Both the position numbers and the translations under genes were made by a program. A DNA stretch of 58,259 bases, the filler included, from Jimgerdemannia flammicorona (taxonomy: Eukaryota), in the NCBI GenBank assembly GCA_003990765.1. It is 3 parts of 3 records of this genome, joined end to end, with 100 filler letters (N's around TTAATTAATTAA, not from the genome) between each part and the next. Parts side by side here need not be neighbours in the genome. Positions count along the whole stretch, not along the records: positions 38,911 to 58,259 come from RBNJ01001959.1; 2 more parts are not named here. One strand, given 5' to 3'. Position 1 is the first letter of the stretch. The number at the start of each line of letters is the position of its first letter. The notes below the pieces were generated by a model. It made no database searches, had not been told where the DNA came from, and saw only the letters and a program-made list of their open reading frames with translations. Positions 4,401 to 52,491 of the stretch are shown piece by piece.

Positions 4401-4759
4401 TCCTCCTCATAATTACTGTTAGCTTAAAGCTCTGGAGGCTAGTCATCTTCTTCAGCTTTCCTTTTTGCTTTAGCAGCTTCTTGCTCATGCTTCTGTTGGT
4501 GGATTTTCCTGACTTCACTGATACAGGACCAGCAGCCATTCAGGTGTTCAGAGTAGTACATCCTAGTACCATGAGGGCATCTTCCTTGAGGAGCATAGCT
4601 ATTGATGATCTTGTTGTACTACTGCTCATCTGTGAGCTTGGGTGTCTTATTCTTATTCTTATTCACCAAGTATATGAAGACTTCTGTGTTCTCTTCATTT
4701 TCTTCCTCTATGTCTGATAGAACTCTTTTGTGGACATTGATAGAGACTCATACTTTTCT

Positions 4760-9365: not shown

Positions 9366-10638
9366 TTATATAGAGAAATATCTAATATACAAAATTACAA
9401 AGCTCAAAATATATAATTACTGATAGATTGCAGAGAAATTAACTATTGAAATAAAATTTAAAAAAGTAAAATTTCAAAATATAATAATCATATTGATAGA
9501 TAGATTTTATACTAACTAAATTTCAGAAATCTAGAGATTGTTTTCTTATAAATATATAATATATATTTTAGAAAAATTAAATTCTATTACTAAAATAATT
9601 AATATATATATATATACAAAATTAATATACTCTGACTAATATTATTTCTTCAGATATTATATATATTTAGTAAAATATAACTCTATAATTATATAGAGAA
9701 ATATCTAATATATAATATTACAAAGCTCAAAATATATAATTGCTAATAGATTGTAGAAAAATTAACTATTGAAATAGTATTTTATAAGATAAAATTTTAA
9801 AATATAATAAACTGATCTGATCTCATTAGTAGATAATCATTTCATACTAACTAAATTTCAGAAACCTAGAGATTGTTTTTATATATAATATATTTTAGAG
9901 AAATTAAATCCTATCACTAGAGTAATTAATATATATAGAAGCAAAATTAATATACTCTGACTAATATTATTCCTTTAGATATTATATATATAGTAAAATA
10001 TAACTCTGTAATTATATAGAGAAATATTTAATATATAATACTATAAAGCTCAAAATATATAATTGCTAATAAATTGTTGAAGAATTAACTATTAAAATTA
10101 TTTTATATAGAAAAATTTCAAAATACAATAAGTTGATCAAATCTCATTAATAGATAGCAATTTCATACTAACCAAATTTTAGAAACTGAGAGATTATTTT
10201 CTAATATATAATATATTTTAGAGAAATTAATATGTATAGAAGCAAAATTAATATATTCTGACTAATATTATTCTTTCAGATATTATATATATTTAGTAAA
10301 ATACAACTCCATAATTATTTAGAGAAATATCTAATATATTTTATTACAGAGTTCAAAATATATAATTGTTGATAGATTGTAGAAGAATTAATCATTGAAA
10401 TAATTATTTTATATAGTAAAATTTCAAAATACAATAAGTTGAATAAATCTCATTGGTAGATTATTTTATATTAATCAAAATTTGGAAATCTAGAAATTGT
10501 ACTCTAGTAATATATTTTAGAAAATTTAAGACCTGTTACTAAATATAATATATATAATTAATATATATTAATTTATCTTGATCAATACTATTCTTTTAGA
10601 TATCATATATATTTAGTAAAATATAATTCTATAACTAT
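9366..10638. repeat. Very AT-rich tandem array, unit ~303-323 bp, 4 units, continuing at 19193-19330
   Basis: TAGAGAAATAT anchors at 9371, 9694, 10017 and 10320. The fifth unit is split by the solo LTR. Confidence 0.85.
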
Positions 10639-16599: not shown

Positions 16600-18530
16600 A
16601 TCTCATCACCAGATAGATCCAAGCATTTCTCTGCCTCTAACTCACCCTCCACTACTGCTTGAGCATCCAGTGCTTCCAAGATTTCCTGATACTTCACCCC
16701 ATCTACAATCTCTATTTCCATCTGATAGTCTGTATACACTACTCTCTACTTCTCCAACCTCTTTCTCAAATTCCACAAATAAGCTACCTGATTATTCACA
16801 ATCTCTCAAAAGGCTTTCTCTCTCTGGTCATCTACTTGATATTCCTCTGACTCTAAGAGCACTGCCAGTATCTCATTTCTATTCATCTTCAGCACCTTCT
16901 CTCCATGGATAATTTCCTTCCAATATCTATCACTTAGGACCCAGAAGTCCTCTCTTCCCAGCTTCTCAGCTACCACCCCCTCCAGGGTCTTCCACAGCTA
17001 CTTCTCTTCATCCACCACCTCAGCAACACTCCTGGCAACTCCTTTAACTTCCACCACAGGGTCCACCAAGACATCTCTCCTCTCTGACTCATCCCACTTC
17101 TCCTCCAATATATCCAGTAGTTCCTCCTCTCTACCTGCTCTACTTGGGACTCTATACTGAGAGTAGACTTTCTCATCCATTTTGGTATCCACCACCATAT
17201 CACTCCTTCCCTCCTTACTCAAACCACTCTGGACCACAACTTGAGTCATTCTGTACTCCTCTGTTCAAGCACTCTCCCTCAGTCCAACACCCCCTTCTTC
17301 TGTCCTGCCATCTGCCCTACTCTCTCCCATCTTCTCCAGCAGCTCCTTCTGTATATATCTCTCCTGCATCTTCTCCTAGGCCCTCTTATCCATCCTGACC
17401 TTCTTTCTATCTATAATCTCTACCACTATCTTGACTTCATACTCCTTCCAAGTCAATCACCTCCTCTCTACTACTTCTGCCAGATTCTCAAGAGTCTTCA
17501 GCAAGTCTTTCTCCTCCTCTGGCATCTCTTTTACCTGTGAGACCTTACACTCTACCAGTCTCCACTTAAGAGTCACTAGTCAGTCCCTCATCTTCCCTAT
17601 ATTCTCCTTTCCAACCAGTCTCACCTGGATGTCAACATCTCTAGTCCAGAGCTTAGTACCCTTCCAGACTCTGAACCTGATGTCCATGATCTCTCCATAC
17701 TCCTTGACTACCTCCACAATCAACTCTCTGGCCCTCTCCCTTGACACTATAAGAAGATCTAACACTATCAATTATATCACTCTAGGGTCCAGGTATATGC
17801 ACCTAGTTATAGAAACTACTACTCTACCCACTATTACCCCCTTCTCCATAGTCTCCAACATCAATATCTCTTCCTTAAATTCAATCTCAACTTCTTCTTT
17901 CCCCTTCAAGAACTTCACCAAAGCCACCCCCTTTATCTCCTGCACCACCAGCCCTAAAATCATCCTTGCAGTCACCACCAAGCTCCAGAAGTACAATATG
18001 ATGACAAATTTCAATCTTGATTTCTTGAGTAATAGTATTGATACCATGTCTGTCACACCATCAGCCAGGTCTCTGGGCCTCATGCCCACCCTCTGCCCTG
18101 AACTGTCAACCATTATCATATCTAGATTTTTTTTCCAAATCTCCAGTTACAGCTCCATCAGCAGTCACATCTCCAGCCCCTACTCTCCCCCCTCCTCTAC
18201 TGTCTGACTCTCCCATGGGGGCCCCTTCCTATCTCTCAACTAAAGCTATTGATGCCTTCCCCAGTTCCAACTAACTATCCAGCCCAGATGTCATTCTCTC
18301 TATCTTGACCTTGTTAGCAAAGGTCATTCTCTCTCCTCCTTGTTGCTGCAGTCTACCTCTCTCTCTACCACCAGCACCATGACCAGCCATAGAGGGCCCT
18401 GGTATCCCCAAACTATCTCTCCACCTCCTCTCTACATACTGCTAGTCAAAGATACTGCTGCTCTCCTGGTTGACATACTCACCAGTATATTTATTGCTAT
18501 CTATATTGATAGTCTCCTTTCATCAAAAAC
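16600..18530 (-). pseudogene. LINE ORF1 (RRM-like region, charged C-terminal part), decayed
   Basis: ORF fragments 17772-18119, 17580-17771 (KEYGEIMDIRFRVWKGTKLWTRDVDIQV) and 16998-17249, lying upstream of ORF2. Confidence 0.7.
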
Positions 18531-19455: not shown

Positions 19456-21230
19456 ACCCTATTCACCGAACTCCTTGCACTACACCCAGCAAGTCAAGAC
19501 GAAGAAGGTCTTATTGAAGCCTTCTTTACTCTTCTCAACAAGAGTTTTGTCAGCTCCACAAATCCGAGCGACCTAGGACAACTAGCAGCAGTCTTTCTAG
19601 CCTTAGTTCCTCATGAAGCCCAAGCCTCTGTAGCCAAGTGACTCAACTCTACCAACTTTCACCATACCAGGACTAAGACTGCCTTATACTACCGATTCCA
19701 GAACAGCAAGGCCCGCCATATCCTCAAAGAAGAAGCAAGAGAAACCCTTCATCAACTACCTGACCCCGAACCTGAAGCAGGCCCTGCTACAACCCTACCT
19801 GAATCTGAATCCAATACCGAACCTGAACTTGACTTTGAATTAAGTCCATCTGAAATCAGATATATAACTGATTCTGTCTACTTTGATGCCGAGCAAACCC
19901 AATTACACGGGGACCAAACTGAAGAAGAGGAGGAGTATCTTACCAAATTTGATCCCGGATACACCACCGAAGGAGACACACATCCATCAGGACAGAATAC
20001 ACCTACACAGCAACAAACAGCTATCTATCAAGCCCTCACTCCAGATCTACAACTACTACTTCAGCAACTTACACAGACCCAAAGAACCCCATCACACTCT
20101 GCACCAGTACCTCAAGTAGTACCAGTAACACCACTACCAGCAGTCCAACTATCTCCAGTAAACAACATGGCGAACCAACAGATTCTAGACCTTACAGCCC
20201 AAGTAGCTATAATGGCAGCAATCATTACTGCCTTAGCCAAACAGACCCGACCTACCAAAAATCTGAGCCTACCTACCTTCAATGGTACTGCACAAGAAGT
20301 CCAAAGCTTCATTAGTGTAGTTGACACCAACTTTGAAGCCAATCAATGGACCAATGAATGAGTTGCTGACCACGTTCTGATAAACAATCAAGACCACACC
20401 CTAGAACAACTCTTTGCTACAACTACAGCCTATGTCCGCTGAGTTGTTATATTCTTCCAAGGACCTGCCGAAGAATGGTGGCGAACCCTTCCTGAAAAAC
20501 CCCTCACATGGGATACCCGACCTGCAGTAGTTGCTCAGAATGCAGCAAACAATACCCCAGGATATGGAGCCCATCCTGCAGCCCCTGGACTCAAACAACT
20601 CATGATTGTCCAATATCACAGCGAGACCATGATTGCTGAATCTCAAGTAAAACTCCGCAACCTCAAATTTGATGTACATGGCAAAGAAGAATTTGAAACC
20701 TTCTGTATAAACCTCGAGTCACTCCTGAACACTGTTGGCCTAGGATATATTGCCAATGACAAAGCATGAAATGGTACAAGAGCAGACCATTTATTCGATG
20801 CCCTGCCTGAATGGCTTACTAGAAAAATCTGAGAACAAGGCCGTCCAGTTGGTTGTGATCACCAACAATGGTGCCTGGCAAGAATCAAGACCATGGTCAA
20901 GCGAATCCTAACAGCTGGACCAATTCTGCCCCGAAGACAATTCAACAACAAGAAAAAGACTTGGACCAAGAAAGAAGAACCCAAGCATGAAGCATCTCGA
21001 GCTCTCTCCACATCCACCTCTTGGACACCCAGAAATCATGAACCCAGCCAGCCAAGCACCTTCAAGAAACTCACTGAAGGTGAAAGGAATAAACTTCGAA
21101 GAAGTGGAGTATGCTTCTATTGCCGAAAGATAGGACACATGGTCAGTGCCTGCCCCAACCGAAAACCCCGAACAGTAACACGAGCAACTGTTACCACTCT
21201 GCACCACCTCAATAATCTGACCACCAGAAC
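19456..21230 (+). pseudogene. gag: Gag of element B, with >230-aa acidic/Pro-rich N-terminal extension and CCHC knuckle
   Basis: In frame from 19456 through LPTFNGTAQEVQSFI to CFYCRKIGHMVSAC. Confidence 0.85.
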
Positions 21231-21640
21231 ACTAGACTTTGTCAAGTTAAGACAAACTGCTAAGGCCCCAACCAAAGGAAGTCAAAAAGCAGCTGGATAT
21301 GACCTGTATGTAGCCGAAGAGCTACAGTTTCCAACTGAGAAGTCAAACAAGTCTATACAGGAATCAGTATCCAAATCCCTGAAGGACATGTTGGAAGAAT
21401 ATGCTGTCACAGCAGCCTAGCGCTGAAAGGACTCTCAGTAGAAGGAGGAGTCATTGACGAAGATTATACAGGCGAAATCATTGTCCTCATTCGAAACCAC
21501 AGTTGGACACCCTTCAAGATCCCTATTGGCTTCTGCATTGCCCAGATCCTATTCGAAAAAATCGAGTCAACCCTCACAGTCAAAGAAGTCCCTGAACTAC
21601 TACCCACCATCTGAGGATCCAAAGGATTTGGCTCATCAAA
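21231..21640 (+). pseudogene. dut: dUTPase fused directly after the nucleocapsid (element B), with a 1-nt frameshift near 21320
   Basis: AAGYDL, (H/R)SSLA, GGVIDEDYTG, (C/R)IAQ and (R)GSKGFGSS. Confidence 0.92.
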
Positions 21641-21849
21641 CAAAGCCCCAGCTCAACCTACCATGAGCAAAGAAAAACAATTATACAAGAAGATTGAAGA
21701 TGGATATGTACCAAGTGGCTGATGCCCTCATGGTATTGGAATGTACTCTTCCTGAATGATCGATGATTGCTTTTCTTGTGTCAATGAACTGGCTCAAAGA
21801 AGAACCAACAGAAGGAAAGCTCCTATAACTGAAATTACCAGCATTGGAT

Positions 21850-24800
21850 CAGACAAACTGCTTACCCTTAAAGCCTTTGTCAACGGAGCACCTGTCAAGA
21901 TTATGATAGACAGTGGTGCCTCAGGCAATTTCATCAATAAGGAGACAGCCAACAGACTCGAGGTCTTCACCTCCCCAGTATAGCAAACTCAAGCAGTTGC
22001 TACAGCTGATGGAACCTCACATGTTATTAGCAAAGAAGTCTGCAATCTACCCTTCTGAATTGGCGACTACCGAGTACATGTTACCCTCCAAATCGTACCA
22101 CTTCCTGACAATGAAATTATCCTTGGAACTCCATGGTTAAAACAAGAGAACCCCATGATCGATTGGGTAAACCATTCTCTGACCATCAAGAAAGGACGCC
22201 ACAACTTCAAACTACAAGGCGAGAAGGACCCACTCAATACTAGTGCCCCAGGACCAAAGATCACCCACATCAACAAGCTACAACTCAAGAAATTGGCCAA
22301 GAAATGCCCTCTCTTCGTCATCTCCATCCGACCATCCAAAGGAGAACCCGAGAACTCTGAAGAAGATTTTTCCAAAGTGGACAGCCATGTCAGACCACTA
22401 CTCCAGAAATTCCGAGACATATTCCCAAAGAAACTCCCGAAAGGCCTACCTCCCAAACGAGCAGTAGATCATGCCATCAAGACTATCCCAGATGCCAAAC
22501 CAGCCTTCAAGTCAATCTACCACATGTCTCCGAGAGAAATTGATGCACTCAAGAAGGAAATCGACGAACTCTTAGAACAAGGATTCATCAGGCCCAGCGT
22601 ATCACCCTATGGTGCACCAGTCCTCTTTGTTGTTAAAAAAGGAGGAGACCTGCAAATGTACATTGACTACCATGACCTCAATGAATAGACCATCAAGAAC
22701 TGTTGCCCACTACCGAGGATTGATGAAATATTCAATAGGCTCACCAACCCACAATTCATGAGCTCTTTTGACCTACGAAATGGTTACTGGCAAATTGCCA
22801 TGAAAGAAGAAGACATCTACAAGACAGCTTTCCGAACTCGCTATGGACACTTCGAGTTCCTGGTTATGCCCTTTGGCTTAACCAATGCTCCAGCAACCTT
22901 CCAGACACTGATGAATACCATTCTGCATCCATATCTGGACAAATTCGTTGTTGTCTACATTGATGACATCCTAGTCTTCAGCAAAACCCTAGAAGAACAT
23001 CTTGAACACCTCGAACTAGTACTACTGAAACTCCAAGAAAACCGACTCTTTGCAAAACTCAGCAAGTGCGAATTTCTCCTGAAAGAAATTCAATTCCTTG
23101 GACACATTGTCACTCCAAATGGAATCAAAGTGGACCCCAGCAAAATCTCTGCAATCAAAGATTGGCCCAGACCGAAGAAGCTGAAAGACCTCCAGTCATT
23201 CCTGGGATTAGCAAACTATTACAGGCGATTTGTTGCCAACTTTGCTAAAATCGCTACCACCCTCACCCAAATGACCAAGCACAGCAAGAAACAAGAATAA
23301 CCCTGGACCATGAAACAAGAGAAAGACTTCAACAATCTTGTAAATTGGGGACCTGAACAAGATACCGCCTTCCAAGCACTAAAAGATGCCCTGATAACCA
23401 CACCAGTACTTCAAGCGGCAAACCCTGCCCTACCATATGAAGTCACCACTGATGCCTCTGACCTAGCTTTTGGAGCAGTGCTCATGCAAGAAGGACACCC
23501 TGTGGCCTATCACTCCCGTAAGTTCAATGATGCCGAAATCAACTACGCAACTCACGAGAAGGAAATGCTAGCCATTGTAGACACTCTGATCAAATGGCGA
23601 CCATATCTAGAAGGAGCACACTTTACCATATTGACTGACCACAAGTCATTAGTCAACATCAAGACCCAGGCTACCCTTTCTCGAAAGCAAGCTAGATGGA
23701 TGAAAGTCCTCACCAACTTTGATTATGAAATCCAGTACCGCCCTGACAAGGAAAATATTGTTGCCAATGTAATCTCCAGACCACCAATCGAAGAGGTTAT
23801 CCAAACCCTAACCTTGGTTACCAATACTATCATGGAACAAATCATCACAGCATGTGTAGATAATAAAGAAGCTCAAGCACTCCGAGAAATCCTGAACAAT
23901 GATGATACTGATAAACATACCCAGTACAACCAATACCAACTCAAGGACAATGCTATCTACTATAAGGACAGACTGTATGTTCCGAACAACCGAGATCTCC
24001 GAAGGACTATCTTATTCAAATGTCATGATGCCCCTACAGCTGGACATTTAGGATTCGATAAATGTTACAAAGTTATCTCCCGAAACTTCTATTGGCCCCG
24101 CATGGCAGATCAGCTCAAAACCTACATCACTTCCTGTGATACCTGCCAAAGAAACAAATCCTCAACACTAGCAAAACCCGGCTTACTCCACCCTATTCCA
24201 GTACCATCTGCAAATTGGAAACAAATCTCTATAGACTTCATTGTACAACTACCCCGAACCAAGAACGGAAAAGATACAATTGTTGTCTTTATGGACTATC
24301 TCAGCAAACAAGCCCACTTTGTATCTACTACCACTACTGCAACAGCACCAGACATAGCCACACTCTTGTTTGATAATATCTTCCGCTATCATGGTCTTCC
24401 CAAGATCATTGTTAGTGACTGAGATCCGAAATTCACCAGCCACTTTTGGAAAGCCCTCCATGCGCACCTTAGAACAAAACTTGCACTATCCACAGCCTTT
24501 CACCCTGAAACCGACAGCCAAACCAAAAGAATGAACCGAACTCTGGAACAAATGCTAAGGAACTATGTCTCCTACAGACAAGATGATTGGCATGAACATC
24601 TCACCGCAGTTGAGTTTGCCTACAACAACAGCAAGCAAGCCTCTCTTGGAATGACCCCATTCTTCGCCAATACTGGACAAAACCCAAACACCTCTTTGAC
24701 ACTTATCCGAACTACTGAAGAACCCTCCACAGTCGAAGCAGTTGAAGAATTCCTACTCCGAATGCGCAATCTAAGCCAGATCGCAATTGAGAATTTATCA

Positions 24801-25302
24801 CGAGCTCAAGAACAACAGTCACAGTATGTTAACCAACACCACCAAGAAGAAACTTTTGATATTGGAGAAAAAGTCCTACTAGACATCAGAGGATACCAAT
24901 TTGACAACCTCAAGCACAGACCATCTACAAAGCTGAACAGCAAGTTCATTGGACCATTTGAAGTCATCACACAAGTCTCTCCAACCTCCTACAAACTGGC
25001 ACTACCGGACACCATTAAGATTCACCCAGTCTTTAATGTTCAACGTCTCAAGTGATACAATGATATGTAATAATGACGAGCTATTTCCCAACCGGACCAC
25101 CAAACCACCTGCACCTATTATTATTAATGACCAAGAAGAATATGAAGTTGAACAAATCCTCAACAAACGTGGCAACAAGAACCATCCCAAGTACCTTATC
25201 AAATGGAAAGGTTACCCGATCCACAATGCAACCTGGGAACCCAAGACCAATCTCCAGAATGCTACCAACCTAGTTCAGGAATATGATTCCTTGAACAACT
25301 AG
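21850..25302 (+). pseudogene. pol: Pol of element B: protease, RT, RNase H, integrase (GPF), chromodomain
   Basis: [47 protein letters not shown]...SD; GPF; chromodomain EYEVEQILN...YLIKWKGY...TWEP. Confidence 0.96.
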
Positions 25303-35900: not shown

Positions 35901-36564
35901 ATATCTTCTGCTAGCATCAAAATCTGGTGATTTGATGATTGGCGAAGTGATTGCTTTTTGGGGGTCACGTATATACTCGAGTTAAAGATTTGATGACTAC
36001 TGTTCGTATGAAACGAAGCTCAGACTGCCGTTGACGTTTTGCTTGTGACCGATAATTACCTCATTATTTGTATTCTTTGTTCATGTGTTGATACAGCCTA
36101 GCACTTGAATCATTCCGCCTGCGCCCCTGACCTTCAATTTCTTCTTCCCTTCTGCAGCCAAATTTTCTAAAATAAAATAACTTCGACTCAACATGTCTAT
36201 TTTGTTTATTACTGTCAGGTCAGGCATACATGGAAGAGAAATTGTATGGGCTGCTGTTATGACAGCTTGCCTTTCCGAAACATGCAAATATGTTGAGACT
36301 GCAGCATAATGATCCCACACACAAAGACGGCAAAAATCCACAAAAAAACGTCCATAATAGATCATTGGTATTCGTTCTATCAATCTCGCAATACAAATTA
36401 CTTCGCAGGAGCCGCGAAAAAATCGCGAGCCCAAAACCCGACTCACCCAATTCTTCAACGCACAACCCTATATTTAACAATGCCAATGCCCATCGGCCTC
36501 CTGTTCTTTCATATAATGAAGGGCGACCTCGATCATATCATAAATCCTAAGCAATATGGCTCAT

Positions 36565-36756
36565 CAAGCACCACGGCTGCTAGGTTATCAAGCACCACGG
36601 TGGCTAGGTTATTGAGCACCACGGCGGCTAGGTTATCAAACTCCACGGCGGCTAGGATATCGACCGCCACGGCGGCTAGGTTATCGAGCACCACGGCTTC
36701 TAGGTTATCAAACTCCACGGCGGCTAGGTTAACGAGCGCCACGGCGGCTAGTTTAT
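36565..36756. repeat. 24-bp minisatellite, 8 units, CpG intact
   Basis: Consensus CRAGCACCACGGCGGCTAGGTTAT. Lies in ORF 36309-36773 as SSTTAARL repeats. Confidence 0.92.
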
Positions 36757-37359
36757 TGCCGACGTTTGCGTAGGCTGAAATCGTGTCACTTGAAGGCTTT
36801 TTGTATCCGTCAGCAAAAATTCGTCATGGTTCTGTACCGCGTTGTAAATGCACGGAGTTTTTTCACGAGTTCGGTTGAGTCTGCTTTGTGGGCACGAAAA
36901 GGGAGAAGATATTAAAAATTTGTGGGGAAAATGAAGTAGAGGCTATTGTTACCCCTGCGACGTTTAAAGTAAGGTTCTTTGTGATGACGAGGAGTGGGTT
37001 GACGATCACGCGATAGCAAACTGCTCGCGGGTTCCCTGCATAAAGAAGAAAGATTGGCACGGTCAGAATGGCTGGAAAAAAATTATCGCAATTTATGTAT
37101 CCCAAAAAAATGCAAAAAACAAAAAACAACAAACAAAAAAATCCCCACGATTCCCAAATGCACTCAATCTTTCCTCTTCTACACTACGTACCAATGTTGA
37201 CGCACAATTGTCCAAATAGATGCTCCAAGCAGCCTCCACGCACCATCCTTGGGGGAAACACTACCCGCTCGTTTTTAATCTTCAATACAAAATATGATTC
37301 AACGAGGAACTTCATCCCGTGGAGCATATTATCGATGTAATCGGCCGCCTCGGTCCAGC

Positions 37360-40697: not shown

Positions 40698-40824
40698 TGT
40701 AATAGAATGAATGAGTGAATAGATGAGATGTGATGAGTGATCATGTGACTCAGCAATGACATCATCATACAATTGAGCATGATATATGGGGCATGCTACA
40801 ACAAAACCAGACAAAATGAACATT

Positions 40825-41830
40825 TTACATCACTCAAGTATTAGGCTCTCATTTAGCCAGTAACCTTTTAATGATTCAATATTCACCATATAAAATAATT
40901 GCCATAAGCAAGCCAAAAGTATAACCTAATGCTCTCTGCTTTCATACTTCTCTTCTTCCTCCTTCTTGTTTGATATTCTGATTCATTTTATATTCCTGAG
41001 TAGCTTTAGTAAAATCTTCATCTTTGAGATCACTAACACTAGTTTCTAAGTGATAGATATTAGGTTTTTGTAGTTTTCTATTAACTTTGTAATTAGGTAA
41101 AATATAAATCTTATCATTTTTGTTAATATGTTTATTTGTTTGCTCAATTATAGATTTTTTGTCATCAATAAAAATATCAAAGTCAGGACAAAGTATGTTT
41201 ATCTTTTCTTAATAATCAGGATACCACTTACTTTCCTCATTTTGTTTGAGTTCAGTTAATTCAAATCTGTTTTGGTCAAACTTACCAAATGTTTTAAATT
41301 TTTTTTTTGTATTTTTCCTCATTGTCTAATTTATCTTTTAGAATGCCTACTTTGTCCTCTGATTAGGAGAATGAACTTATAATTAGTAAGTCACTAATAA
41401 AATCCTCTTTAAGAGCCAAAAGTAAATCCTCTGCAATTGTAGTAAAAAGAACTTTGAATCTTTCTTCAACTCTATAAACATCCATAAATTTACTTCAGCC
41501 AATATCAGGATTATTTTTTATGGTTGTTCTAACCTTTTCAAGTTCTTTGATAGTTTCTCTTTGTTTTTCATCATCAAAATCAAGTGAGATTAAAATATCT
41601 TTTACTTTTCCTCCACTACTAGTAGAAGGCTCTATAATAGCATCTTCTCAGAATATTTTAAAAAATAAATCAAAAGGAATAGTAGTTTTTGAAAATCTAT
41701 GAATTATTGCTGGTTTTAATAGTTGTAAACAATCATCTCAATTGACAATGATTTTCACCTTTCTCTCTTTAAGTTTGACTTGTTCTTTGATGAAAGAATG
41801 GAGGTGATTGATTTTGTTATAATTATCCAT
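40825..41830 (-). pseudogene. Intronless HAD-like phosphatase/nucleotidase with C-terminal TM segment, Mollicutes-like (UGA=Trp?)
   Basis: MDNYNKINHL...KIIVN[TGA]DDCLQ (HAD motif I-like)...DFDIFIDDK (motif IV)...LGYTFGLLMAIILYG. About 335 codons, AT-rich, with one extra A in a homopolymer. Confidence 0.7.
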
Positions 41831-41844
41831 ACTAATAATATAAT

Positions 41845-43599
41845 TTATTTATTGATAGTATTGATTGGGCTTGGACAAGTGATATCTTTGAATTCATCCT
41901 AGGCAAAGGAGTGAATATTGTGATAAAGGTATTTCTGGTATTTCAATTCTATAGGAGGAGGCACTAGCACCGAAAATGACAAGGCTTTGATTTCTTTTGA
42001 AGCCTTGGGTTTACTACTTTTTAATAGTTTAAATTCTTAGAATAGACTATTTGTGACTTCCTGAGCTTTGATCACCTCAGGCTGAGAACAAGTAAAAAGG
42101 AAATGTTGAAACTTTTGTATACTAGGCAGCTTCTTGAAGTATATTTCTAAACTACTCAGAATGTCAAAGTATTGAAAACCTTTGCTACCTTTGTAATGCC
42201 AAGGTTTATTTAGTCCAGCAATGCTAGACTTTTTTACTACATCCATAACATGATCTATACAATCCACAGTCATTTTGCAATAAAGCCTTTTAATTAGGCC
42301 AAAACTACCATCACACTTAAATTTAGTATGGCCCAGAACTATGAAGTTCAATTCAATACTTTCATAGTACCTGCAAATTACCAAGTATATGTAAAACTAA
42401 AGAGTAGTATTATTTTTGTTTTACCCACCTACATTATCGCAGGTAATCTTCAAATGCTTTTCACTTCTATTCAATTGCTTAATTCTATTGAAGACTAGGC
42501 TAAGCGTACCATTTGGACCCTTCTGGAGAAGTTCATTCTCATCCAGTATGTAATTAATTTATTTATACACTGCTTCATCCTAGATCTCAAACAATTGTAC
42601 TTTGCAAGTACTAAGATAATATACCTTGCTAATTTGTTGATCGGAATGAAGTACATAGATATTTTGTGCTCAGTCATAACTGTAATAGGTAACTGCATCA
42701 GTGTTGCAGTAGGGTATCTTACCTTCGACCACTGAATAATTCTGCTCAATGAGTTTTTGGTGTTCTTCAGCCAACTTGGTATTTTTGTTATAATAATTTC
42801 ACTCCAACTTGGCCTTGGCTAAATGTTCTTTATACCTCTTTAATAAGTCTTGGGCCTCTTCCTATTTATGAGCTTTGAATTGCAAGTCATTCCACAAATG
42901 TTGACAGGTATCATATAAATTGGTTTGAGGACTCATGACTTGAATGTATGAAGTTAGTTGATGCCACAATTTGTAGAATGCATCATACTTCAGGATACGC
43001 AATTTACTATCTTCTTCCAGACCAGCTAGAAAGTTATGGTGAACAGACTTATAGCTCAATTCTGCAGATAAAAAGATAATTGATTGGGTGACTCAATTAA
43101 TATTTCTAACTGGGCTAGGTAATCCATGAACTTCAGCATAATTTACCAAAAAATTCTTAATGGTGATAGCAATATTAATATTGATGACCATCTTGGTTTT
43201 TCACTGTGGCATTCTCTTTACATTACCATGTACTCATGATAGAAGACCATTCTTGAGCAAGTGATTTCAGATATTTTCAAAATAATTGCAGCCAATGCCA
43301 AGCATATTGAGATAAGTTTTTTGGCAAATAGGGGTATTACGATTCCAGCAGTAGATAGTTCTCTTATTGACATGAGTCTTGTTCTTGAGACATTGACTAG
43401 TATTGATCACTCCTCCATCCATGGAACTGAGTTGGGCCATTAAAAAGATGTCTTGTTCTGACTTAGAGAGAGCTTGAAAGGCTTCCCACAATTCGGCAAA
43501 CTCTTCTCTAGGCACTTTGTCGGAGCAACTGCAATTGCATCCCACTTCTAAAAATTGGAGCACTTTCTGGTATTCGGTTATAATTGTATCATTTACCAT
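41845..43599 (-). pseudogene. Sola1-like DDD transposase (~585 codons), decayed
   Basis: PICQKTYL, YDTCQ (CxxC), KGPNGTLS, ITCDNVGG*NKNN and LGHTKFKCDGSFGLIK are Sola1-type motifs. Confidence 0.82.
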
Positions 43600-43739
43600 A
43601 TATATATTTATGTTCAGTTTGTCTGGTTTTTTAAAATTTCCTAATGACCATAATTAAATCTACTATGGAGCCCAAACTACAGCACTTTATGCTCTATTAC
43701 GCCAACATGACTCTCTTTTCGCGTCAGGCGTCCACCCAA

Positions 43740-46095
43740 CTATTCTTCAACACTATTCTTGCGCACTTTTTTGACTGGCGTTTCTGGTACCGTCCCGAAA
43801 CATCCGCCTACTTCAGATAGTTGATTTTCATTCCTCTTGCGATGCGCTCGCGAATGTGCCAGAGCTATGTTGTTCACATGTTCACGCATGATCTTGATGG
43901 TCGCCTAAAATTAAATGAATATACCAATGAGAATAAGGAACAAGACAGCGATAAAGCAATGATTGCGGTAGTTTATATAGTACCATGAGGTCCGACATAG
44001 CGACGAAAAACTCCTCCAAGCACGGAAGCGTTGTGACTGTGTTTGGAAGCCTAGATTGGCGAAGTCTTCCGAAACGCATTATATTGGTTGCTTTACAGTC
44101 CATGGCGTATATCTCATGAACCCAACCTTAGTATTGAGGAAGGTAAGTCGTTAAGACATGATTTTAAAATTGATCACCGAGTTCGCCATAATCGCATATT
44201 TACCCCACGACTGCATGCCAATAACGAACGTCTTATGCAGATCGTCGTCTTGTGCCTTCGAATTGTATATAAAGAACTGGCAGATGATGTCACGAAGTGT
44301 CACCGATAAATCGATACGATCCTCAAAGATCTTCCTTCGATGGGTTTCGGGAAGCCCACCACTACGTAGGCCGATCAGAGGCTCAAAGTTGTTGATACTC
44401 TTTTTCATTGTTCCCCGCAAATCGCACTTCTGCCCGACACGAGCACGGAGGAGGATGGACCGACCAACATTGCGACGTTCGGCTGATGCCCAGCATGCGA
44501 TCTCACCACTAACGAATTGTGAAGAGGAAGAGTGAATATAGTGAAAAAACGAGCCTATCTTCTGTGTTTATACATACACGTCAATCTTTAGTTCCTCTGG
44601 GTCAAGGCACCGCTTTACCAGCATGTTTGTGAATGCGTTGTCAAAAGCGGCTTCGGAGACCGGAAGGTCAACGAAACGTAGGTTCTCAGCACTGGATGAT
44701 GATATGGTAGATACTATGAAGTGATATGAAGCGAAATATTAACTGATGATTGCCTGTGATGCTGCACTCACTATGTTACAATGGCGCGTCTAATGGTCGC
44801 GATATCTTGATCCTTGGCATTGAGGTTGACACCATCCTTGTTAATTGACTCCGGAAATATTCGTTCGATAGCCGTGACGACGTCATCGTCCCCCTGGGCC
44901 TTGACAACCTGAAGGCGTGCGGATTGATATCGTAAGAACAAATCTATTTCTGTCAAGGCAAACCTATCGTCACTTGCCTTCTCGAGCTCGTCAAAGAAAC
45001 GCAGCACGCCGTCTGAGATATCCGACTTCACCAACTTCACTTCTTGCTCGAAGCTCGCAACCATCTCCGCCCAGTCGTCCTCTGAAAAGATGCATTTGGT
45101 CTCAAAATGATTGCCTGTTAAATCCAGGATATTCCAATACACCGGGCTGCAAAAAAAAAAAAAATTCAATAAATCAATCATTACCAGAAATGCCACGAAG
45201 GTGTATGCAAATGAAGACTAACTTCAGAAATTTCTCCGCATTCGGAATTGTCTTCGCGTACGCCGCTAGAACATCTCCAACATTTGTTCCACTCGACAAG
45301 ATCCATGATCTCTGACGACATGATGTCTGCCGGCCTTCGACGCACTCTATATATTTGTTGCAAATCTTGTCGATCTTGGCGTTGTCGACATCATCATCGA
45401 CAATCTTGCTATCTTTCTTGCTAAAGTTGTCGTTGCCGTCATCGTTGTTCTTGTCCTTACCGCTGTCACTAGTGTCTTTCTCCAGTACAACTAACTCCGC
45501 ATTGTTCATAGTATCGTTGACGTTGTTACTGGTATGCCCACCCTCAAGAACAGACTTCAAGCGTTTTCCCACAGACTGCGAAATAGAACAAAATAAACTG
45601 CAAGCTCAACCGAACCATAGATATGTCATGAATGAGATAACAATACTTGCTGTTATATATTTTTTAGAGGTCAGTTCCATTGTAGCCGATTTTTCCGCAA
45701 CAATGCTTAATTCAACGTCAGTGCTATACAATTTCTACGAAATGCACTTGCATTAATATTCGTTGATAATCAGAACATTCCACAAGAAACGACCTTCTGT
45801 GACTTACCTCAGCATATTTTAGATCTTGAGTCTTAAGAAATTCTTTGACCTCTGGCCGATCTAGCGTTGACGTTAAGCTTTCACAGATTTTTAGAGCTTT
45901 CCTTTGCACTGATTTGGTGAATGTGTTGCTCGTGGATCTAATCTGCATATGTTGCAAAAACACGTCACAGATTTCTAGAAAATTTGCACTTGTGTAGCTA
46001 ATATTTTCTGACAGATATTGCATAACTCCCAGCAGACTCCAATTGGTATATGGAGTAGCTTCCAGGTACTTCAGCGTATAAACTTCAAAGGTCAT
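43740..46095 (-). CDS. Apparently intact multi-exon (~9) gene with a C-terminal PD-(D/E)xK/REase-like domain (Mucoromycota Crinkler-like effector family)
   Basis: ORF pieces are joined by GT/GC-AG introns with no internal stop found: MTFEVYTLKYLE...SWILSSGTNV...SEAAF...GEIACWASAERRN...GQKCDL...LIGLRSGGLP...EDRIDL...RD...VIGMQ...SRLP, ending TAG at 43740. CpG content is normal. Confidence 0.75.
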
Positions 46096-46181
46096 TCTGT
46101 GGAAAGAAAGAAAGAAAATAAATAAATATTAGAGCAGGCTATAAACAAGAGAAAAATAGACAACTGAAAAAAACTTCGTTT

Positions 46182-46527
46182 AACGTAATACTTCTGGTAG
46201 AGAGAGCGGAAGGGTAGGCTACTAAGAGGAAGCCGTCCAAAAGGGCGAACCGCGTCAAAGAGGGGAGCTCCCGCAACTCTCTACCAAACATCAGCCGCAG
46301 GGGTTGCTAAGCACACTGAGCACTTAGCTCGGCACATACGGGTGTAGGAAGTATTACGTTCAGTATGCTAGACACAAAGTCAAAGGAGTAGGCTACTAAG
46401 AGGAGGCCCGTTCAAAAGGACGAACCGCGTCAAAGAGGGTATGCATTTGGCCTTGCGCTAAACAGCAGCCGCAGGGGTCGCGAAGCATCAGGTGCTAAGC
46501 TCGGCCGTACACGGGTGCCGGATACTG
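46182..46527. ncRNA. Two head-to-tail structured units (179 and 167 nt); candidate novel ncRNA/ribozyme
   Basis: Invariant 17- and 19-nt cores. Enclosing stems differ in sequence but stay paired, and hairpin changes are compensatory. Confidence 0.6.
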
Positions 46528-46802
46528 TGGATCGCAGGAATTATAAATTGTCAACTTCCCTGAGTATACCTGAAGTTTGGTTTTCTGGGTGATAACGGTT
46601 CGAACAATCTACAGGTAACAACGCACATATTAGAACAACGAACGTGCGAATGGAAGACAAACTGGCAGCACTATTAATACCACTCACGATATCGACTGGC
46701 AACAATGAACGCGAAAAAGAGAAGCGTACGCAACGCGTCAAAATTTTCAAGGCAACGTCACCCTCATACCAAGCCACACATCAGTTCACTTTTTTTCCTC
46801 AG

Positions 46803-47268
46803 TGTGATGGTAGTATTGGTCTGATTAAAAGGCCACAGCGATGCTAGACCTTTTTACCACATCTGCGACGTGATCTATACAGTCCACCGTGGTTTTACAA
46901 TAAATAAAGCTCGGCATTATAATGGTAGCAAAGGTTTTCAATACTTTGACATTCTGAGTAGTTTAGAAATATACTTCAAGAAGCTGTCTGGTATGCAAAA
47001 GTTTCAACATTTCCTTTTTACTTGTTCTCAGCCTGGGGTGATCAAAGCCCAGGAAGTCGCAAATGGTCCATTCTAAGAATTCAAACTATTAAAAAGTAGT
47101 AAACCCAAGGCTTCAAAAGAAATCAAAGCCTTGTCATTTTTGGTGTAAGTGCCTCTTTCTATAGAATTGAAACATCAGGAATACCTTTATCACAATATTA
47201 GCCCCTTTGTCTGAGACGAATTTAAAGATATCACTTGTCCAAGCCCAATCAATACTGTCAATAAATAA
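46803..47268 (+). pseudogene. 3' third of the Sola1-like transposase (right arm)
   Basis: CDGSIGLIKR...GFQYFDILSSLEIYFKKLSGMQKFQHFLF; inverted copy of 41845-42315. Confidence 0.85.
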
Positions 47269-47282
47269 ATTATATTATTAGT

Positions 47283-48276
47283 ATAGATAATTATAATAAA
47301 ATCAATTACCTCCATTCTTTCATCAAAGAACAAGTCAAACTTAAAGAGAGAAAGATGAAAATTATTGTCAATTGAGATAATTGTTTACAACCATTAAAAC
47401 CAGCAATAATTTATAGATTTTCAAAAACTACTATTTCTTTTGATTTATTTTTTAAAATATTCCGAGAAGATGCTATTATAGAGCTTTCTACTAGTAGTAG
47501 AGGAAAAGTAAAAGATATTTTAATCTTACTTAATTTTAATGATGAAAAACAAAGAGAAACTATTAAAGAACTAGACAACCATAAAAAATGATCCTGATAT
47601 TGGCTGAAGTAAATTTATGGATGTTTATAGAGTTGAAGAAAGATTTAAAGTTCCTTTTACTACAATTGTAGAGAATTTACTTTTGACTCTTAAAGAGGAT
47701 TTGATTAGTGACTTACTAATTATAAGTTCATTCTCCTGATCAGAGGACAAAGTAGGCATTCTAAAAGATAAATTAAACAATGAGAGAAAATACAAAAAAA
47801 AATTTAAAACATTTGGTAAGTTTGACTAAAGTAGATTTAAATTAACTGAACTTAAACAAAATGAGGAAGGTAAGTGGTATCCTGATTGTTAAGAAAGGAT
47901 AAACATACTTTGTCCTGACTTTGATATTTTTATTGATGACAAAAAATCTATAATTGAGTAAACAAATAAACATATTAACAAAAATGATAAGATTTACATT
48001 TTACCTAATTACAAAGTCAATAAAAAACTACAAAAATCTAATATCTATCACTTAGAAATCAGTGTTAGCAATCTCAAAGATGAAGATTTTACTAAAGCTG
48101 CTCAGGAATATAAAATGAATCAGAATATCAAACAAGGAGGAGGAAGAAGAGAAGTGTGAAAGCAGAGAGCATTAGGCTATACTTTTGGCTTACTTATGGT
48201 AATTATTTTATATGGTGGGTATTGAATCATTAAAAGGTTACAGGCTAAATGAGAGCCTAATACTTGAGTGATGTAA
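47283..48276 (+). pseudogene. Second copy of the HAD-like cargo gene (right arm)
   Basis: Inverted copy of 40825-41830. ATG is mutated to ATA, with a small deletion near 47570. Confidence 0.75.
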
Positions 48277-50419
48277 AATATTCACTTTAGCTGGTTTTGT
48301 TGCAGCACACCCCGTATGATATTATAAATGACAAATATAATGAACAATATGAATAATGCAAATAAATGATATCTAGCTTACCTCTAGTAATCAGTATCAC
48401 AGTATGGCACTATATCAACCAATAATGTAGTATAGCACTATAGTAACCAGCAATGCAATATAGCACTGTAGTAATTAGTACTATAGTAACTAGTACTACA
48501 GCAATACTACTCATTGCTTAGTAATAGATGTCATGATTACAAACCTTACTATAGTTACCAAATTAGTCACTTATTCTTAGTCAGAAATCATAAACCAACT
48601 TATATAAATACCCCCAGTTTCTATTCAAAATAAAGCAGTTTTAGTTTAGTCCTTGATATAAGAATCAAGTTTCCCTTCCATATACACATTCTCCTGAGTC
48701 TTAGTAATGATATCTAAGTGACTTTAGTGTTTCTGATTAAACTCCAGAAGTCTAGCTAACTTCTGCCAGAACTGAGACTAGTATATAAATTCCCAAAGAC
48801 TTAAGTAAACCCATTGAATCTGAATTCCAAGGCAAATTCAGTATGTGTATAGCAAAGAACAAGATCTCTGAAAGATAAGATAAAAGAGAAAGACCTTTGA
48901 AAGATAAGGCACTACCACTACAATTACTGTTAAGTGAGCACTTCCTCAAACTGAAGGCTTCTTGGTACACATTGTATACTAAGTCTTTAAGTAATAGTCT
49001 TACTTCCCTAATTATCCAAAGGATAAGAAAGGGGTAGAAGTAAGAGTTATTACAACTTGGTAGCAGCTGTTTACCAGTCAAGAAGGCATCAAGAACATAC
49101 TCCTGAGAAGTTGGAACAAGACTAACCTTGGATAGGAGTAACCCTAAAACCAACTGTGGATCTCCAAATCAGAGCCAGAGAAGCCCTTACCATTAGGACC
49201 AAGTGGTACCAGAAAACTACAGATCTAGGGACTAACCAGCTTATAATTGACCAGACTTATAAGGATCTATACCAGGCTTTTAAGACTTACCACCCAGGAC
49301 TTAGGAATATAGTTAGCTACTATAGGTTCTACAAACTTCTCTATAGATATATTGGAACCACTAGGACCCCAGAATCTACTGCTGCAGTCATTCAGAATTT
49401 TCTAGATTATATCTCACCTCTTACTGTAAAAGAAGCAGCTACTGAGTAGATTACCTCTGACAGATATCATCATACTCCTATCAAGACCTCTCTCTACTAT
49501 AGGCTAGTTGTATACTATGCCTCTACCATAACTAGGTATGAGAATGAGCAAGCAGGCCACCCATCTCCTACTGCTGAACAAGAAGCAGACCCATCTTATT
49601 AACTAGAAACTGATATTCTCTTTGAAGGACCTAGTCAGTATGAGGATGCACTATCTCATCAGGGAAGGGAGTCAGATGAAGACTCTACAGATTACTAGTC
49701 TGATAATAGCCAACAAGGAACAGCAGGCCTAGGAATTTACTAAAGAACTATAGGTCAAGAAGATAGGACCCCAGAACCAACTCAGCCACCTATCAGAGGT
49801 TTGGTTTACTGTCTCTCACAGGACTCTTTAATCAGATATTTGGGAATCAAGTAACTCCAAGTCATACAGCACCACAACCTCATCAGACAGAACAATCTTC
49901 AGGAGAATCTATCCCTACAGGACCACAATCAATAGTCAACACAATGGTAGATGTCAATATTGCAGCACTAGTGCTCTGAACAGATGGAGTTGATTCAGAT
50001 TCAATTCAATTCAAATTCATCATGTGATGGATTCGAATCAACTCAGATTGGTCTCATGATCTGATCTAGATTGATCTAGATTGATCCAGATTGATCTATC
50101 TGGATTGATCCATCTGGATTGATCTGGATTGGTCTATTTGGATTGGTCCATCTAGATTGGTCCATCCAGATTGATTCATCCGAATTGAAATCTTTGGTGA
50201 TATTATCCTTTCTTTTGTTCATTTCACTCTTGTTTTTTTTTTCCTGCTGTACTTTGGTAACATCACTCTTTTCTTTTGCTCTCTCTCTTCTTTTGTTCTT
50301 TTCTTTGTTCTTTTTCTTTGTTCTTTTTCTTTGTTCTTTTCTACCACATCATGAGTAAACAAAACAGCAGCCCTTAATTTGTATGTTGGTCCAGTCTACT
50401 CATTTTTCACCCTGCAATG

Positions 50420-52491
50420 ATCATCAAAAGAGGGAGTATTCAAGGTGGAAACACACTCTCTACTGATAATGTTAGATTCTTTCTTATATGGACAGTACAC
50501 AAGCTGCTCATCAAGAGCCAAAGGGGTGACAGCAGTGGCAGTGGTGATGGTGATAGTGATGGCAAGGATGAGGGAGAATTCCGGCAACAACTCACAGCGG
50601 CCCTTCAGACTTTGGAATTCACAGACCTCACAACTATGTATGCAGCAGTCTTTTTGAAGTAGCCAATAGTAGATGTAGGTTGCTTACTCAGCTGCCACTT
50701 GTTTACTTGTATTTATTTAAACTTCTCCAGCATGACCCAATTTACCTTATACTTTTCTTAGGGTCAACAGCTCTATGGTGAGATCTGCCAACTTTATTCA
50801 CAACATCTGGTCAAGATGAAGAAAGGCTGGTAGACATTGTGGAGCATACCTTTGGTGGCTGAGCTGTTGAGTCAATGTATCGTATGGTGGAGGTCTCAAA
50901 AGGAACAGAAGTAAGCCTTCATGAGCAATCTTATGCAACTTGTGCAACTCATCAGCATGTAACTCGTCAGCATGCAGCTTACTCACTCACTCACTCATGC
51001 TCTTTTTCTGAAATACTCATCTTCATGTTTTATTTAATTTCAATTTTATGTAGTCTCTCCTTAAAAAATACCCACACTTGCACACAACCTGTCTGCACAT
51101 AACCCACCTGCATGCAACCTGCCTGCATGCAACCTGCCCGCATGCAACCCACCTGCAACCCGCCTGCACACAACCTGCCTGCATGCAACCCGCCTGCACG
51201 CAACCTGCCTGCATACAACCCATCTGCATGCAATCTGCATACTTATCTCAGTCTCTCAGATCAGGGCTCAGTTCTATTGGAAAGGAGAGTTCAAAGTTAC
51301 CCAAGTTCAATCACATCTGACATCTGATCAAATAGAGAAATTCGAGGGCAAGATGTTTAGCATGAGTAGTACCAGCATCATTATCAAGGCTTGAGAGTCT
51401 ATATTTGAATCAGAGCCAATCATACTCGACCAAGGGGTCCATTGGTCAGCAGGAGTAACCAATGACAAAGAGAACTATATCTTTATTAATGAACATGGAG
51501 AGGTGGTTGCAATGGTGGTAAGGAACTTCTATGGTGATGAGCTTCACCACCATATCAACAAGATTTGCAAGGATTGCATCAAATACTGGGTAGCAGGAAA
51601 GAGGGGGTGAAAAAAGCAAGGAGGGGGGGTTTGGATGGAAATTGGGTATACTGCAATACTGGCAAAGGGTGGGTTCTGGAGTTCCGAAATTCCCTGCACT
51701 CATCTCCCTTTTTTTTTAACCCCTCCCCAGATAAATCATACTCTTCACTGATATACTCTTTTTGACACAATTCTAGAGATGCACAAGATTCTGTACCCTT
51801 ACTGGAACTTTAGAAGTACCGTCAAAGAGCAAACTACATGTGAGCATAACATGGCCTATGCGGCGATAGTGGCTATGATCTGGGGTTCTTTGAGCAGATT
51901 GGTAGAGCATATGGCAGGCCAGCTTGGTGGTGATCTTAGCATGGCTGTATGTATATTCTTGGTGCAATTTAGCATACCATATGAGGTGAGGAGCTCCACT
52001 TTTTCAAGGTATTACAGCCTGGGGGGTTTCTGCCCCCCCACACACAAAAAGGACTGACCAGTTGCCATCCATTTCAGCAGGTTTCTAAGCCGGGGCTCCC
52101 AGGGCTGAACTAAGGGCAGGCATCCACCAGCACAGCCTGGTAGTATAAAGTCCTGGGCCAAGGGTTCACTCAACCATATACTCATGTCATATCAGGATAC
52201 GTCAGGTATAACCTTTCTCTACCCATACACACAGATAACAATATCACCCTGGTAATGTTTTACATCTCAAAAAGGAAGGGCCTAACCTGGGAGGATAGTG
52301 GCAGAGTCTGGTATGACCTCATCTACAGTTTCGGGGTCCTGTTTGCAGCCAACACAGCTATTCTATTCCAACCACATGATCACCACAGCACTGTTGTCTT
52401 CAAGCAGAGCTCGGACATAACAGTCATCACACTTACAATAGATGATAGGCTCATTAAGGCCTGGGACCGGCAGGTGGAGCAGTTTTTGTAA
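50420..52491 (+). pseudogene. Decayed intron-containing cargo gene ending in a 2OG-Fe(II) dioxygenase-like (TET/JBP-like) domain
   Basis: Frame 52144-52491 reads YNLSLPIHTDNNITLVMFY...GRVWYDL..FGVLFAANTAILFQPHDHHSTVV (HxD...H). Confidence 0.45.
51085..51240. repeat. 15-bp minisatellite (TGCATGCAACCTGCC)n
   Basis: About 10 degenerate units. Confidence 0.85.

Follow-up and report, generated by a model that had tools for sequence, protein, structure and literature searches.

Apart from the classical examples, eukaryotes are known to have few RNAs that combine a complex fold with a large invariant core, and thiamine pyrophosphate (TPP) riboswitches are the only riboswitch class known in fungi. 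The glycine riboswitch is an example of a tandem riboswitch, and the ToxI repeats of bacterial type III toxin-antitoxin systems are near-identical 36-nucleotide (nt) RNAs that are cut into units by ToxN. Some fungal TPP riboswitches control splicing, for example that of Neurospora NMT1 / NCU01977 (PMC3597705). In such systems, a domain with a conserved core lies in the 5' region of the pre-mRNA, its helices set the availability of splice sites, and both isoforms occur. Tandem riboswitches and aptamers (PMC9481103) are bacterial systems whose ligands and expression platforms are known. In such an architecture, a single leader carries neighbouring paralogous domains that share a core but not their peripheral helices. 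Using comparative genomics, Li and Breaker 2017 (PMC5640933) combined structure with alternative-splicing information to describe 15 structured motifs in fungal 5' leaders, for example the SDC motif, which represses translation. Here, we describe two structured units (unit 1 and unit 2) in the DNA of the fungus Jimgerdemannia flammicorona, transcribed in the leader of an uncharacterised minus-strand gene that we call gene A. The whole stretch analysed, referred to as the window, comprises 58,259 nt, and the units lie in its part RBNJ01001959.1 (38,911-58,259).

The closest working analogue of this locus is the splicing control exerted by fungal TPP riboswitches. The units differ from these in having no Rfam TPP match, in the gene not being metabolic, in the presence of two tandem modules, and in the location of the splice donor inside the closing helix itself. 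With the tandem architectures they share adjacent paralogous domains that combine one core with different peripheral helices in a single leader. Like the motifs of PMC5640933, which according to its abstract and outline lower expression in cis, they are conserved structured elements in a fungal leader, although none of those 15 motifs is named there as tandem or linked to the gene A family. Finally, tandem RNA repeats directly upstream of a putative nuclease-like gene recall ToxI/ToxN, and an earlier sequence-only reading of this DNA had proposed, as one option, an RNA partner or antitoxin loosely analogous to these arrays. The antitoxin idea is not supported, since neither the size of the units nor their context nor the protein family fits the analogy. 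At 167-179 nt the units are much longer, their stems differ, their mean column identity is 81%, they sit in a spliced eukaryotic leader, and the gene A protein has no ToxN-like or other family match.

The units abut with no spacer (Table 1). In the MAFFT alignment that gives the above mean identity, 113 of 183 columns are identical, and blocks of perfect identity alternate with blocks of no similarity. A two-unit profile searched against the window with nhmmer returned the units with E values of 4.7e-54 and 1.7e-49; the next row had E 1.5, and a third copy was not found in the 58 kb. The core CGAACCGCGTCAAAGAGGG has two matches in the window against 0.01 expected, and GTAGGCTACTAAGAGGA has two exact matches plus one elsewhere with three mismatches. 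CAGCCGCAGGGGT also has two matches, but 6 of 100 shuffles likewise give two. AGCTCGGC and ACGGGTG are aligned and identical in both units, so that all five cores singled out as invariant by the sequence-only reading are found in each. The upstream open reading frames (ORFs) of the two units read the cores in different frames, and the cores are therefore not conserved as peptide. Core A starts with the near-palindrome GTAGGCTAC (46214-46222 and 46388-46396), whose two copies could pair mutually at 8 of 9 positions or be the DNA site of a dimeric protein. Some 200 nt upstream of unit 2 in the minus sense, at 46728-46742, a 15-mer, ACGCAACGCGTCAAA, resembles core B at 13 of 15 positions; nhmmer detects no more unit-like similarity around it.

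Table 1 Coordinates of the two units, their helices, the gene A transcript and the surrounding repeat in the window
Feature	Position	Strand	Remarks
Unit 1	46182-46360		179 nt; minus-strand transcribed within exon 1
Unit 2	46361-46527		167 nt; cores as in unit 1, helices weaker
P1 unit 1	46182-46194/46348-46360		13 bp, perfect
P2 unit 1	46195-46209/46271-46286		bulged, 9+4 bp, directly after P1
P3 unit 1	46217-46220/46231-46234		
P4 unit 1	46235-46238/46243-46246		
P5 unit 1	46294-46297/46330-46333		
P6 unit 1	46306-46311/46323-46328		
P1 unit 2	46361-46366/46522-46527		6 bp
P2 unit 2	46369-46385/46445-46460		~14 pairs, 2-3 non-standard
First untranslated exon (exon 1)	46192-46589	-	at least this long; 398-nt X1 contig, 0 differences
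Leader intron	46097-46191	-	95 nt; GT..AG on minus strand
Exon 2	45808-46096	-	start codon 46095-46093; P0048 residues 1-101 = 46095-45793
Second intron	45735-45807	-	73 nt; spliced out in X1 and X10 contigs; joint 45734 to 45808, ends CT..AC
Gene A coding region	43743-46095	-	~506-560 aa, several introns; uncharacterised family, predicted PD-(D/E)XK-like C-terminal fold
DUF7869-type ORF	41848-43602	-	E 3.4e-8; 13 in-frame stops; decayed copy
Inverted repeat, left arm	40784-42317		~1.5 kb; 91-94% complementary to right arm
Inverted repeat, right arm	46801-48317		plus-strand fragment of DUF7869 C-terminus inside; inner edge 274 nt from unit 2

Because MAFFT misaligned the variable stems, which also made RNAalifold on its alignment of little help, the structural alignment was built by hand from the window coordinates; it is thus fitted to the structure and biased towards it. 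P1 and P2 of each unit were judged by their duplex energy against 2000 shuffles of one arm. In unit 1, none of the 2000 shuffles was as good as either P1 (-15.3 kcal/mol) or P2 (-20.4 kcal/mol on the plus strand, -21.5 on the minus strand), and the fold of the whole unit has a z-score of -5.4 (plus) or -5.2 (minus). The perfect closing stem of unit 1 (AACGTAATACTTC/GAAGTATTACGTT) and the CAGTAT/ATACTG stem that closes unit 2 from the very next base are both as the sequence-only reading had described them. The unit 2 helices were reached by 16-54 (P1) and 36-78 (P2) of the 2000 shuffles; they occupy the same places relative to the cores as those of unit 1, with unrelated sequence. Over P1 and P2 of the hand-built alignment, 45 of 49 cells are Watson-Crick and 46 (plus) or 47 (minus) are standard, with 11 pairs changed on both sides and 8 unchanged. 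When the 3' partners were slid by 1-3 columns, only 15-20 of 41-47 cells remained standard. The earlier statement that the second stems differ in sequence yet pair thus holds. Consensus folding was equally good for the two strands: the plus strand has 58 pairs, of which 14 are changed on both sides, and the minus strand has 59, of which 13 are. P3 pairs GGCU with AGCC or GGCC, P5 pairs GCCG with CGGC, and P4 is formed by GUCC/GGGC in unit 1 (four pairs) and by CGUUC/GGACG in unit 2 (five pairs), in keeping with the previously noted change of the hairpin from CGTCC/GGGCG to CGTTC/GGACG. Because these inner helices are nearly invariant, P3-P6 are neither supported nor refuted by covariation, which is likewise uninformative for a possible long-range helix or pseudoknot, ACC-G-CGU/ACGGGU, that is itself nearly invariant. 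Within a 504-nt minus-strand fold (z -2.56), each unit still forms a closed domain. Taken together, these data support two structured paralogues whose cores are conserved and whose outer stems compensate for sequence change.

To place the units on transcripts, contigs from public runs (X1, X3, X4 and X10) were aligned to positions 45600-47200. The first exon covers the whole of unit 2 and nearly the whole of unit 1, of which only the final 10 nt (minus sense) are missing. Both units therefore lie in the 5' untranslated region (UTR) of the minus-strand mRNA, in its first exon and outside any intron. The intron of about 46569-46097 in which the sequence-only reading had placed the pair is not seen: the contig runs unbroken over 46192-46589, and the observed leader intron, with the donor GAA/GTATTACG and the acceptor TTTCCACAG/AATG, begins at 46191. 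A 60-nt X1 record joins 46096 to 46192 at a depth of 9.1 (spliced leader), and a 155-nt record spans 46067-46221 at a depth of 5.26 (unspliced path). The 398-nt exon 1 record has a depth of 13.4, approximately their sum, and its first 30 letters are common to the spliced and unspliced junction records. This bubble in the X1 graph is the pattern expected of a partly retained intron 46191-46097, and spliced and unspliced leader forms coexist. The canonical intron ends, the annotated start codon and a second spliced intron in X1 all agree with the leader joint; a 1892-nt X1 contig skips 45735-45807 (CT..AC, that is, GT..AG on the minus strand) and ends at 46096. Intron-like or introner-like elements were rejected as an identity for the units, which are not spliced out and contain no joint in the X1 contigs, although rare isoforms could escape notice; U12-type or ordinary splice signals read by eye inside the units were dropped for their weak fit.

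The 5' splice site of the leader intron sits in the 3' arm (minus sense) of unit 1 P1. The donor GUAUUA lies in P1, its bases having a predicted pairing probability of 0.98-1.0, and after splicing just 3 of the 13 P1 pairs can form. A perfect P1 is therefore sensible only in RNA that is not yet spliced or that retains the intron, or else on the opposite strand. The leader also carries four upstream AUGs. When it is spliced, the stop of the last upstream ORF (34 codons, start 46291; 46192-46291 with 46093-46098) overlaps the main start as AUGA; when it is unspliced, this ORF stops at 46139, which leaves 44 nt to the main AUG. We regard the AUGA overlap as a lead only. The leader intron also contains seven consecutive A (T on the minus strand) at 46168-46174, 8-14 nt beyond the end of unit 1.

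A related organism (run X10) carries both units, in contigs that match 46169-46423 (10 differences, 1 gap) and 46406-46564 (12 differences, 2 gaps). Its coding exons differ at 25 of 236 nt and at 7 of 84 nt, and the second intron is likewise removed. The table of X10 differences, which leaves out those close to contig ends, lists 10 substitutions and two indels in the units (346 nt) versus 32 substitutions in the exons (320 nt; Fisher P 0.0002). By codon position, the 22 listed changes in exon 2 (2 in exon 3 left out) are distributed 8/7/7 with no bias, and the exon therefore looks near neutral. Only 2 of the 10 unit changes fall in columns that are identical between the units, which make up 65% of residues (binomial P 0.0045). 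The X10 contigs cease to match just outside the units, beyond 46564 and before 46169; a deletion across the putative 46569 donor is a by-eye reading of the 30-letter loose end beyond 46564. Since the X10 changes avoid the cores and similarity decays outside the units, these sequence patterns indicate that the cores are under present constraint.

The units were compared with known RNA families. With Rfam 15, cmscan of the whole window gave no hits at gathering thresholds, and at E<=10 the region 45900-46800 returned only chance-level rows for snoR25 (E 1.8, 46139-46201) and bxd_4 (E 4.5), which fall outside or at the edge of the units. No Rfam family thus matches the units at either level. The sequence-only reading had suggested a candidate new non-coding RNA (ncRNA) or ribozyme: an uncatalogued structured RNA is supported to the extent that two paralogues in two related organisms can support it, and the ribozyme part is unsupported. 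None of the self-cleaving ribozyme models (hammerhead, hepatitis delta virus-like, twister, twister-sister, hairpin, pistol, hatchet) matches, nor does the TPP riboswitch at gathering thresholds or E<=10. The conserved catalytic core of a hammerhead surrounds a three-way junction and reads CUGANGA ... GAAA; at the aligned place of the minus strand, unit 1 has CUGAUGU and unit 2 CUGCUGU, and this core is not kept. An H/ACA small nucleolar RNA (snoRNA) comprises a hairpin, an H box (ANANNA), a second hairpin and an ACA 3 nt from the 3' end. On the plus strand, ACAUCA or ACAGCA does occur between the domains, but the spacing of the ACA that comes after the second domain differs from one unit to the other, the invariant ACGGGUG and the P1 arm lie beyond it, and X10 has a 2-nt deletion there. 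No Rfam snoRNA hit falls within the units at E<=10, and an H/ACA identity was rejected. tRNA-type promoters have internal A and B boxes. A tRNA or a tRNA-derived short interspersed nuclear element (SINE) was rejected: ARAGORN finds no genes in the window, and by eye the minus strand has only a partial B-box-like GGTTCG and A-box-like strings. Readings by eye of RNA polymerase III boxes and of RNase P/MRP were dropped for weak fit. A guide-like use of the variable stems was also set aside, with 10 other 11-mer matches in the window against an estimated ~12 expected.

Homologues of the units were sought in other sequence collections. A metagenome scan with a 17-mer, which was too short, gave at least 120 loci; of the 120 listed, none contained two or more additional core motifs, and 11 contained just one 8-mer, at 1 mismatch, all judged to be chance. 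A two-core pattern had no hits in viral contigs, and a looser one had two in prokaryotic genomes, approximately the number expected by chance, neither with other cores. A protein-index look-up with a 50-aa upstream ORF over unit 1 gave no candidate and was uninformative. In the literature searched (subscription journals lying outside its scope), we found nothing on Jimgerdemannia non-coding RNA. Among the matches listed, none on ribozymes in Mucoromycota dealt by title with such an element, and none concerned a riboswitch, ribozyme, structured RNA or ncRNA of Endogonales.

The units are best explained as an uncatalogued RNA module of complex fold in two paralogous copies. As to what the module does, we tentatively favour, while stopping short of calling it probable, a cis-acting structured leader that gates the splicing or translation of gene A. 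The units would act in cis on the pre-mRNA or mRNA, where the 13-bp closing helix of unit 1 would bury the 5' splice site of the 95-nt leader intron, and the folded or unfolded state of the module would set splicing against intron retention. Folding could be determined by a protein or small ligand held in the invariant core. In addition, a structured leader of ~400 nt with its upstream AUGs would be expected to limit scanning translation. Within this scheme, we infer that the helix may control splicing, that a factor may bind the core and that the minus strand may be the acting one.

Several points weigh against such a role. The position of the splice site in P1 could be a coincidence, and the fold of the entire unit 2 does not exceed its shuffles in stability (z -0.3 to -0.4). 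The record that joins the splice sites has 30 letters per side, one below the rule of thumb for bridging; X1 was labelled RNA by guess, albeit with spliced forms in its contigs; and contigs cannot reveal strand, ends or abundance. In the worst case, with all unlisted X10 differences falling within the units, the comparison with the exons becomes 21/346 versus 32/320 (P 0.064), and no X10 contig spans both the units and gene A, which leaves their linkage there unbridged. The evidence base is two paralogues in two related organisms. The lack of a unit homologue in the viral, prokaryotic and metagenome searches is itself weak evidence, because no eukaryotic genome collection was among those searched. 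Finally, the evidence on the acting strand is mixed. The minus strand is that of the gene A mRNA, within whose leader the units are transcribed; two A-C mismatches of unit 2 P2 on the plus strand become G-U pairs on the minus strand (-11.9 versus -8.8 kcal/mol); and three of the four listed X10 changes in Watson-Crick pairs of P1 and P2 (46209, 46360 and 46459) give G-U on the minus strand, with none doing so on the plus strand. Conversely, P3 and P4 contain three U-G pairs whose minus-strand counterparts are A-C mismatches. Moreover, the unpaired stretches that are conserved (AAAA, ACUAAGAGGA, UCAAAGAGGG) are purine- and A-rich when read on the plus strand, as is usual in structured RNAs, and U/C-rich on the minus strand. 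The claim of the sequence-only reading that core G-U pairs favour the plus strand accordingly survives for P3 and P4 but not overall.

These plus-strand features would suit one or two independent plus-strand ncRNAs with their own promoter, antisense to the leader, whose overlap with the mRNA would be incidental or regulatory. P1 is complete only in unspliced or plus-strand RNA, the plus-strand fold of unit 1 has the strong z-score given above, and a TATAAA lies at 46141-46146, inside the leader intron and 36-41 nt upstream of the first base of unit 1. TATAAA is, however, common in AT-rich sequence, the interspecies stem changes fit the minus strand better, and the exon 1 depth in X1 does not exceed 9.1 + 5.26, so that this run shows no extra RNA over the units, although such an RNA would escape a library selected for poly(A). 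We consider independent plus-strand RNAs unlikely. Somewhat less unlikely, yet still not what we would expect, is a passenger status of the units, as a duplicated structured repeat that is mobile or associated with transposons (SINE-like, introner-like, resembling a miniature inverted-repeat transposable element (MITE), or a DUF7869 subterminal repeat) without a function for the host gene, with stems that would be relics of the RNA or single-stranded DNA biology of the element. A MITE has terminal inverted repeats, a target-site duplication and many dispersed copies. The 1.5-kb inverted repeats that frame the locus and the decayed DUF7869 ORF inside it point this way, as do the transposon-rich window with its Ty3/gypsy element at 20.8-25 kb, the 13-bp ends of unit 1, which resemble terminal inverted repeats, the weak fold of unit 2, and the near-palindrome of core A, which could be a protein-binding DNA site. 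The balance of G-U and A-C evidence between the strands is also as expected without strand-specific selection. Against this, neither a third copy in the 58 kb nor, by eye, a flanking target-site duplication was seen, and the units are not spliced out in the contigs. In the DNA-like contigs, unit depth equals that of the neighbouring exon (6.5 versus 6.9 in X3; 2.0 versus 2.6 in X4), and the units are therefore no high-copy, near-identical repeat. The cores are 100% identical beside unrelated stems and are avoided by the interspecies changes, which argues for present constraint.

Two bolder proposals remain to be weighed. It is a long shot that the units form a new eukaryotic RNA switch, with tandem aptamer-like domains through which a metabolite or the encoded nuclease-like protein would hide or free the leader 5' splice site, or alternatively that they belong to a new self-cleaving ribozyme class. 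The version in which each unit is such a ribozyme, on either strand, with the exact abutment marking cleavage sites, we hold to be the least probable of all. The layout of the units, abutting in tandem, their unpaired cores invariant and their peripheral helices variable, is one typical of ribozymes; the possible ACC-G-CGU/ACGGGU pseudoknot would connect the two domains. Yet the ribozyme models of Rfam give no match even at E<=10, unit 2 has CUGCUG where unit 1 has CUGAUG on the minus strand, and the X1 contigs are continuous across both unit borders, although assembly would bridge cleaved RNAs. The candidate core helices are all invariant, which puts them beyond the reach of covariation. The ribozyme proposed by the sequence-only reading is thus not supported.

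We further characterised the protein encoded by gene A. A 113-aa exon query was 100% identical to two hypothetical proteins of Jimgerdemannia flammicorona, and gene A is 49-72% identical to a protein of Paraglomus occultum. The family comprises 151 clusters at E<=0.001, 67 at 1e-10 and 21 at 1e-30, with one named from Paraglomus. The protein has no Pfam family and no PDB sequence match, and relatives were not found in viral contigs. Its AlphaFold (AF2) model has a mean predicted local distance difference test score (pLDDT) of 72.5; it is confident over residues 135-490, with pLDDT >90 over most of residues 360-480. Foldseek of this model against the PDB gave nothing at E<=0.001. PD-(D/E)XK nucleases have a restriction-endonuclease-like alpha/beta core and D...(D/E)xK active-site residues. 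By VIA-align, residues 282-470 superimpose on the PD-(D/E)XK domain of BpuSI (Z 7.8, root-mean-square deviation (RMSD) 3.3, 144 aligned), followed among PD-(D/E)XK matches by DrdV (Z 6.6) and HsdR (Z 5.8), a range that VIA-align itself rates as ambiguous, and by NucC (Z 4.9). Two mitoribosomal chains reach Z 9.3, but with RMSD values of 12-14. The family has near-invariant E, D and G residues. The model thus makes it plausible, without establishing it, that gene A is nuclease-like; of the earlier designation of the neighbouring gene as nuclease-like, the modest fold match speaks for it, and the blank sequence and Foldseek comparisons do not.

The locus is a decayed DUF7869 transposon-like inverted repeat, in which arms of ~1.5 kb frame the DUF7869-type ORF, gene A and both units. 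Within the arms, a 69-nt piece (42216-42284 versus 46836-46904, 81%) is direct rather than inverted, so that the repeat itself contains a small inversion. A 589-aa relative (P0011, 72.5%) is collinear with the DUF7869-type ORF. Many other relatives exist, those with names coming only from Glomeromycota (Ambispora, Diversispora and Geosiphon), and DUF7869 was absent from the literature searched. The window is otherwise transposon-rich. A Ty3/gypsy-type retroelement at 20833-25055 (plus strand) includes a zinc knuckle, reverse transcriptase, RNase H, an integrase zinc domain and a Tf2-type SH3 domain, and is split into pieces that run from stop to stop. On the opposite strand, at 3989-4423 (minus), there is a separate ORF with a dUTPase. 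Between 12001 and 18000, GC skew is strongly negative, at -0.37 to -0.59 in five of six 1-kb windows and -0.21 at 14001-15000, with a GC content of 42-46%; ORF 17380-18207, the sole one tested there, has no Pfam match. A tandem array of a 303-nt AT-rich unit (9497-10638; 3.6 copies, 79% matches) is situated where the GC content of the window is lowest (20-24%), and short tandem arrays occur at 36563-36758 (24-nt unit, eight copies) and 51079-51240 (15/30-nt CAACCTGCC-type unit, ~11 copies).

What is new here is the placement of the units in the first untranslated exon and a leader intron (46191-46097) whose 5' splice site lies inside the unit 1 stem. A module of ~175 nt with six helices and ~110 invariant positions, retained in two paralogues with fully rewritten outer stems, is the kind of signature that led to the discovery of bacterial riboswitches and ribozymes, and the buried 5' splice site, with both splice forms present, offers a concrete handle on it. 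Should the splicing link fail, the units would be one more transposon-associated repeat. If the RNA-switch interpretation were true, fungi would have another kind of splicing riboswitch, the second after TPP. If the splicing link holds, the locus would provide a simple system for structure-controlled splicing in an early-diverging fungal lineage.

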